DNA of 64,000 bases, taken from NCBI RefSeq assembly GCF_003018235.1, contig NZ_CP027437.1. One strand, 5' to 3'. Shown here in pieces: positions 14,311 to 17,886 of the stretch (positions are counted from its first letter, which is position 1; every line of letters begins with the position of its first letter). The position numbers were made by a program, and so were the translations under genes. The DNA comes from Escherichia coli. Lineage in GTDB: Bacteria; Pseudomonadota; Gammaproteobacteria; Enterobacterales; Enterobacteriaceae. The notes beneath the pieces are model-generated. The model was not told where the DNA came from and ran no database searches. It saw nothing but the letters and a program-made list of their open reading frames with translations.

Positions 14311-17886
<3,576 letters not shown>

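Follow-up and report, generated by a model that had tools for sequence, protein, structure and literature searches.

The spacer between uidR and uidA in this Escherichia coli chromosome carries an uninterrupted run of 11 C, and we consider it likely that this C11 is a natural, near-neutral, hypermutable mononucleotide repeat that drifts by slippage and from which no effect on promoter geometry is expected. The tract was followed in a window of 64,000 nucleotides (contig NZ_CP027437.1), whose numbering is used throughout, and in the other genomes described below.

Position and rarity of the tract

Positions 14402-14417 read GAATTCCCCCCCCCCC, that is an EcoRI site running into an unbroken C11, with one C common to both. 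This agrees with the sequence-only reading that preceded our analysis, which had described C11 as abutting GAATTC; the final C of the site is in fact the first of the tract (Table 1). That reading had also placed the run in non-coding DNA about 290 bp 5' of uidA, and indeed the tract is non-coding and lies between the two genes, with the uidR stop 96 nt on its 5' side and the uidA ATG 287 nt on its 3' side. A protein search with uidR returned UidR matches at 99-100% identity, and the collinear locus of strain SC418 has the gene order malX-malI-hdhA-uidR-uidA-uidB in RefSeq.

Table 1. Features of the uidR-uidA region, in window coordinates
Feature	Position	Strand	Basis or remark
uidR (gusR), TetR-family repressor of the uid operon	13720-14310	+	196-aa ORF; RefSeq annotation of collinear SC418
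Hairpin 3' of uidR, CGCGGGCT-N11-AGCCCGCG, then TTTCAT	14326-14352	+	perfect 8-nt inverted repeat
Poorly conserved spacer	14353-14406	.	two deeply divergent haplotypes in E. coli; diversity 0.10-0.24 per site
GAATTC (EcoRI site)	14402-14407	.	conserved GAATT, completed by the leading C of C11
C11 homopolymer, hypermutable mononucleotide repeat	14407-14417	.	sequence and allele series across genomes
A-run adjoining the C-tract	14418-14420	.	A3 to A5 between haplotypes
Palindromic block TCGAACGAACGTTCGATTG, inferred GusR/UidR O1 operator	14468-14486	.	outermost cross-genus conserved element
Proximal uidA control region, highly conserved	14517-14704	+	promoter area, ATTGGTTAAC/GTTAACTAAT palindrome, Shine-Dalgarno GAGGAG
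uidA (beta-glucuronidase)	14705-16516	+	603-aa ORF; RefSeq annotation of collinear SC418

The run is of unusual length for E. coli, as the first reading had it, being the only homopolymer of at least 8 in the 64 kb, where all others are 7 or shorter. Under an independent-base model, G/C runs of at least 11 are expected 0.024 times per 64 kb and about 1.8 times per 5 Mb genome. The 3 C9 words of the window all fall within the tract, and dinucleotide shuffles gave a mean of 0.29 such words, reaching 3 in 2 of 100. For comparison, published work on E. coli K-12 already regards G:C runs of 8 bp, present in some leucine tRNA genes, as outliers against the whole genome, and mutation-accumulation work in E. 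coli describes an exponential increase of indel rates with homopolymer length (PMC8510543). With 11 uninterrupted bases, the tract is above the length of about 8 taken here as slippage-capable. The count of 11 is to be read as give or take 1.

A native chromosomal junction

GAATTC followed by a homopolymer has the superficial look of a dC-tailing or EcoRI linker junction. A cloning or tailing artefact, which the first reading had raised and which would make the sequence non-chromosomal, is refuted by the distribution of the junction, and we leave it practically no chance. The 461-bp spacer used as query matched 5,419 of 5,426 complete E. coli genomes, with at least 80% of the query covered in 5,410, and the matches always sit between uidR and uidA. 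The GAATT-C(n)-A(n) junction is thus native, being found within an unchanged gene order (malI-hdhA-uidR-uidA-uidB) in about 5,410 of the 5,426 complete genomes, K-12, BL21 and O157 included. In K-12 MG1655 the same site reads GAATT-C6-A4 (GAATTCCCCCC), in a spacer that has no annotated feature. GAATT is kept in nearly all sampled haplotypes (EcPF14 has GAATC), and the EcoRI site stands next to the tract because this conserved GAATT happens to precede a C; judged from these sequences, the proximity of the two appears to be a coincidence.

Outside E. coli, a scan of species-representative genomes found the exact E. coli uidA-upstream sequence in one contig, NZ_VLXZ01000387.1 (242 bp, low coverage), of an Alkalicoccobacillus porphyridii assembly, which is probably E. 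coli contamination.

Tract length varies on one flank haplotype

Alleles were taken directly from the sequence of 26 further genomes and contigs (Table 2). Comparison with other E. coli genomes, which the first reading had proposed, revealed no fixed reference tract: the length varies. The flank haplotype of the window, found in about 2% of genomes, carries C7, C8, C9, C10, C11, C14 and CAC9, and every allele of at least C8 is on this haplotype. A 110-nt search for it recovered 86 genomes at 95% identity or more and 123 at 90% or more.

Table 2. Alleles at the tract
Allele	Genomes and contigs
C6	K-12, H2, 7/2, JNE25-001, A5, EC16, two metagenome contigs
C7	005008, ST2747 (CP007394)
C8	Rb-50, ST2747 (CP007392, CP007393)
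C9	NY1601, strain 104, VCSW5
C10	Z1323HEC0462, 14EC020
C11	SC418, GMF065, the window itself
C14	MEI003
CAC9	ChlosBP-23-1
CCTCCCT, interrupted	O157:H7, BL21
CCACCT after GAATC	EcPF14

The longest alleles were sought with an artificial C18 query placed on each of 3 flank types, so that the longest tracts rank first. On the haplotype of the window this gave one C14, two C11 and one CAC9, which spans the same 11 nt, followed by a group of 9 at C10 and then a large group at C9; lengths in these last two groups were derived from match length, with one member per main group checked in sequence. C14 was the longest allele found anywhere. Alleles that are short or interrupted hold their length: haplotypes of the K-12 and 005008 types reached at most C7 with the C18 queries, and O157 and BL21 share the interrupted form. 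In addition, a pattern scan of metagenomes returned 3 contigs, of which two were read as C6 while the match length of the third fits C6 too.

Lengths change in steps among close relatives, faster than the flanks do. In a 3-kb alignment, MEI003 (C14), SC418 (C11) and ChlosBP (CAC9) are only 5-8 SNPs apart and NY1601 (C9) is separated from ST2747 (C8) by 1 SNP; GMF065, also C11, is 29-30 SNPs distant. As close genomes differ in length and C11 is met again 29-30 SNPs away, tract length outpaces the substitutions of the flanks and recurs independently. The earlier description of the run as slippage-prone is thus borne out by C7 to C14 on one flank haplotype, with lengths differing at 1-8 SNPs per 3 kb. 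Clonal replicates mostly have the same length (E166 twice, 2020N21-246 twice, GPEC1352 and GPEC1356), which indicates that the tract is no fast switch, and is instead a hot spot. We also noticed that the adjoining A-run goes from A3 to A5, so that C-to-A substitutions where the two runs meet, instead of indels, may account for some C(n)/A(n) differences.

Homopolymers this long are error-prone on several sequencing platforms. Length differences between assemblies could in part be homopolymer sequencing error, and the three ST2747 assemblies disagree (C8, C8 and C7). It is accordingly conceivable that C11 is real and that its count is off by one or two through a miscount in assembly. We regard this as unlikely, considering that two independent assemblies, SC418 and GMF065, have exactly C11 on identical 110-nt flanks and that neighbouring alleles from C7 to C14 exceed typical miscounts.

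The tract lies outside the conserved control elements

The operators and the promoter of the gus operon have reportedly been mapped by Little et al. 2018 and in the Blanco papers (Blanco 1985). Here O1 was located indirectly, by combining published deletion primers with cross-genus conservation. The primers of Pellegrino et al. 2023 join ...AGCCCGCGTTTCATACTTTA to GCGATCTATATC... (PMC9881133), and this junction maps to a loss of roughly 14365-14528 (~165 bp). As the deletion uncouples expression from GusR (PMC9881133), O1 would be within this bracket, which also holds the C-tract. The sole strong palindrome of the bracket is TCGAACGAACGTTCGA at 14468-14483, with one exact copy in the window.

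We compared the gusR-gusA loci of Salmonella, Enterobacter, Cedecea, Buttiauxella and another relative, fetched through UidR homologues. Results showed that GAA-GAACGTTCG-TTG is invariant in E. coli and in every one of these loci, that GTCAA about 20 nt beyond the palindrome is likewise invariant across the compared genera, and that the invariant block occupies roughly -250 to -200 relative to the start of gusA; no conservation was found upstream of the palindromic block in this comparison. We infer that the GAACGTTC palindrome (14468-14486) is the GusR/UidR O1 operator, because it is inside the deletion bracket, is the only strong palindrome there and is invariant across genera. A direct repeat, GTCATATGTCA / GTCTTATGTCA, was also seen at 14432-14442 and 14497-14507 with a spacing of 65 bp, and its second copy overlaps the cross-genus GTCAA beside the putative operator.

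Published CRISPRi data add to the picture of the proximal region. Guides from -191 to -38 lower GusA, and the tiling reaches just -191, short of the C-tract (PMC9881133 Table S1). With non-template guides at -105 and -94 (BL21; about 14600-14611 in the window), GusA was repressed 9- to 27-fold; guides on the template strand, placed from -159 to -38, gave a repression of 2.5- to 8-fold (PMC9881133 Table S1). Repression from these guides implies that the functional promoter and control region runs well upstream of the Shine-Dalgarno sequence.

The diversity profile of the spacer places the tract in its most variable stretch. Per-site pairwise diversity is 0.24 at 14380-14399, 0.17 at 14400-14416 and 0.11 at 14417-14436, and it is 0-0.03 across the near-invariant 190 bp preceding the uidA ATG. 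The tract ends about 50 bp upstream of the 14468-14486 block, outside all conserved control elements. On its 5' side there are just the uidR hairpin and the spacer of two deeply divergent haplotypes, and no second O1-like site was found there. As no conserved site is 5' of the tract, a change of length alters no spacing between a conserved site and the promoter, and the proposal that the tract modulates uidA promoter geometry is not supported by a position in the most variable segment, beyond the outermost conserved element.

The same observations bear on whether the tract could be a phase-variable or rheostat regulator of uidA, acting through promoter or operator spacing or phasing. Variable length would be expected of such a regulator, and the tract is inside the distal ~165-bp segment that is required for GusR control and whose deletion abolishes it (PMC9881133), so that some contribution of the C-tract to distal control is conceivable. 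However, it stands 287 nt from the ATG and parts no conserved pair of sites, since what lies 5' of it is the most variable side of the spacer, holding the uidR terminator only, while clonal replicates mostly do not differ in length. Nor does the tract separate -35 from -10 elements, or the core promoter from an activator or operator site. Regulation of this kind is, in our judgment, very unlikely.

Candidate roles in read-through RNA, coding and structure

The hairpin 3' of uidR is the main stem of the RNA fold. It was not called in a terminator scan, having a long loop and a short T-run, and from its sequence it is a probable weak intrinsic terminator. Directly after the uidR stop, a TC-rich microsatellite at 14311-14325 (TCCTCTCTCTCTTTC) shows small indels between strains, with 2 more bases in Rb-50 and 6 fewer in 005008, A5 and EC16.

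A weak terminator leaves room for a role of the tract in RNA. The tract might be a tunable insulator, loading Rho in a rut-like manner on uidR read-through RNA, with longer forms terminating better and lowering basal uidA. No activator of Rho is stronger than poly(C), the uidR hairpin has just TTTCAT after it and is missed by the scan, and every allele stays pyrimidine-rich. A rut region is expected to be some 70-80 nt of C-rich RNA, poor in G and little structured, 3' of a stop codon. The 78 nt around the tract have a C/G ratio of 2.33, which ranks in the top 0.3% of the 64 kb, and with C6 instead the same 78 nt would still be in the top 2.7%; the tract is also unpaired in the plus-strand fold. 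However, composition alone does not define a rut site and a high C/G skew is by itself weak evidence, conservation within the spacer is lowest around the tract, and a C6 or interrupted tract suffices in most E. coli. Such an insulator seems improbable to us.

A broader form of this idea would make the C-rich patch 5' of the GusR operator a functional, lineage-tunable element, either as a Rho-loading or insulating site or as a rigid G:C block altering access to O1. From the sequences compared here we find this hard to credit. If true, the alleles from C7 to C14 would act like a rheostat on basal beta-glucuronidase in one E. coli lineage, and a gut-relevant enzyme would be tuned by repeat length. 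Beta-glucuronidase returns glucuronidated drugs to their active form.

In Salmonella, a C-rich patch, CCCTCCCGCCCCCTCCCCCTC, is found just 5' of the conserved GAACGAACGTTCG palindrome (about 2857-2877 on the minus strand of the fetched Salmonella locus, -277 to -257 from gusA). A close relative has a shorter patch, CCCTCCCGCC, and Enterobacter, Cedecea and Buttiauxella have none. The Salmonella patch and the E. coli C-tract, which may or may not be homologous, have matching positions relative to the palindrome, and this could point to a function.

No conserved ORF or RNA occupies the tract. Minus-strand ORFs at 14296-14436 and 14168-14443 span it mechanically, so that the tract could in principle be the frameshift switch of a small minus-strand ORF in which poly-G codes for a glycine run. 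These frames are neither conserved nor annotated: between strains the translations are wholly different, frames are lost, one strain has no start codon, and the RefSeq genomes listed have no annotation there. We give a frameshift switch next to no credence. An Rfam scan of 14000-15000 by E-value found no family, and RNA folds around the tract were no better than shuffles on either strand (z -1.54 and +0.15).

Other candidates were set aside. A promoter scan gave 1 hit against 0.9 expected, inside the terminator hairpin, and this was taken as chance. The imperfect palindrome GGGAGCGGAG-AATT-C10 was rejected as a binding site, as EcPF14 has GAATC and the left arm varies. Terminator-like hits occur on the minus strand in this region, where no converging gene exists. 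As for H-DNA or a G-quadruplex on the G-rich strand, C11 seems too short.

History of the locus

In Salmonella, Enterobacter, Cedecea, Buttiauxella and another relative, gusR is divergent from gusA, with a spacer of roughly 375-405 bp, whereas E. coli has the two genes in tandem, with uidR first. A difference of this kind implies that the E. coli lineage underwent an inversion. As far as sequence comparison goes, the poorly conserved, E. coli-specific segment 14311-14467, within which the C-tract falls, may represent the junction of this rearrangement. E. albertii and E. fergusonii are reported to be without uidR (PMC6790063). In Enterobacter hormaechei, gusA-gusR lies between an IS1 transposase and a group II intron reverse transcriptase, an arrangement suggestive of mobile acquisition. 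We also noticed that uidA of O157:H7 TB21-1 is annotated as a frameshifted pseudogene, fitting the glucuronidase-negative phenotype known for this lineage.

Probable slippage in a weakly constrained spacer

Slippage as the cause, and neutrality with it, is the reading that we draw from these results. Replication slippage would add or remove C:G pairs in a weakly constrained spacer that extends from the uidR terminator hairpin to the distal end of the control region. With fewer than about 8 C, or when interrupted, the tract would be almost fixed; one E. coli lineage would have crossed the threshold of about 8 C and would now drift quickly between C7 and C14. Changes of length would just shift the 3' end of uidR relative to the uidA control region, and no regulatory consequence is expected since no two conserved sites are parted by the tract.

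The tract is among the longest G:C homopolymers likely to be met in an E. coli chromosome. As it evolves faster than nearby SNPs, it could be of use as a marker for fine distinctions among the ~2% of E. coli with the long form. Caution is needed when assemblies are compared, because tract length differs between them for both biological and technical causes, and such a difference should be taken neither for a cloning scar nor for a switch without data.

Comparison with known systems

Tracts in which one base changes expression are known from the poly-C of the Bordetella fim promoter and the poly-G or poly-C of Neisseria porA and opc, which separate the promoter hexamers from each other or the core promoter from an activator site. 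The uidA tract resembles them as a G:C homopolymer of about ten bases upstream of a gene, changing in length by what is probably slippage. Unlike them, it lies outside all conserved control elements, with ~250 bp between it and the promoter area further 3'. Homopolymeric tracts in Bordetella pertussis are also the subject of a published study (PMC1891110).

With the GusR/UidR regulatory region of gus, the tract shares the uidR-uidA spacer that holds O1, O2 and the gusA promoter, and it falls within the published O1 deletion; however, the conserved palindrome at 14468-14486 does not include it, and the Enterobacter, Cedecea and Buttiauxella loci have no such tract.

The closest likeness is with the polymorphic intergenic mononucleotide repeats of E. 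coli, which have reportedly been described as markers for strain typing (Gur-Arie et al. 2000, Diamant et al. 2004). In the literature searchable here we found no published description of this uidR-uidA locus. Like those repeats, the tract is non-coding, differs between strains in single-base steps, varies more in its longer unbroken forms and has no known function; unlike them, it exceeds at C11-C14 any other run of the window, and its expansion is confined to one flank haplotype. The C-tract is a new and rather long example of this class of repeats.
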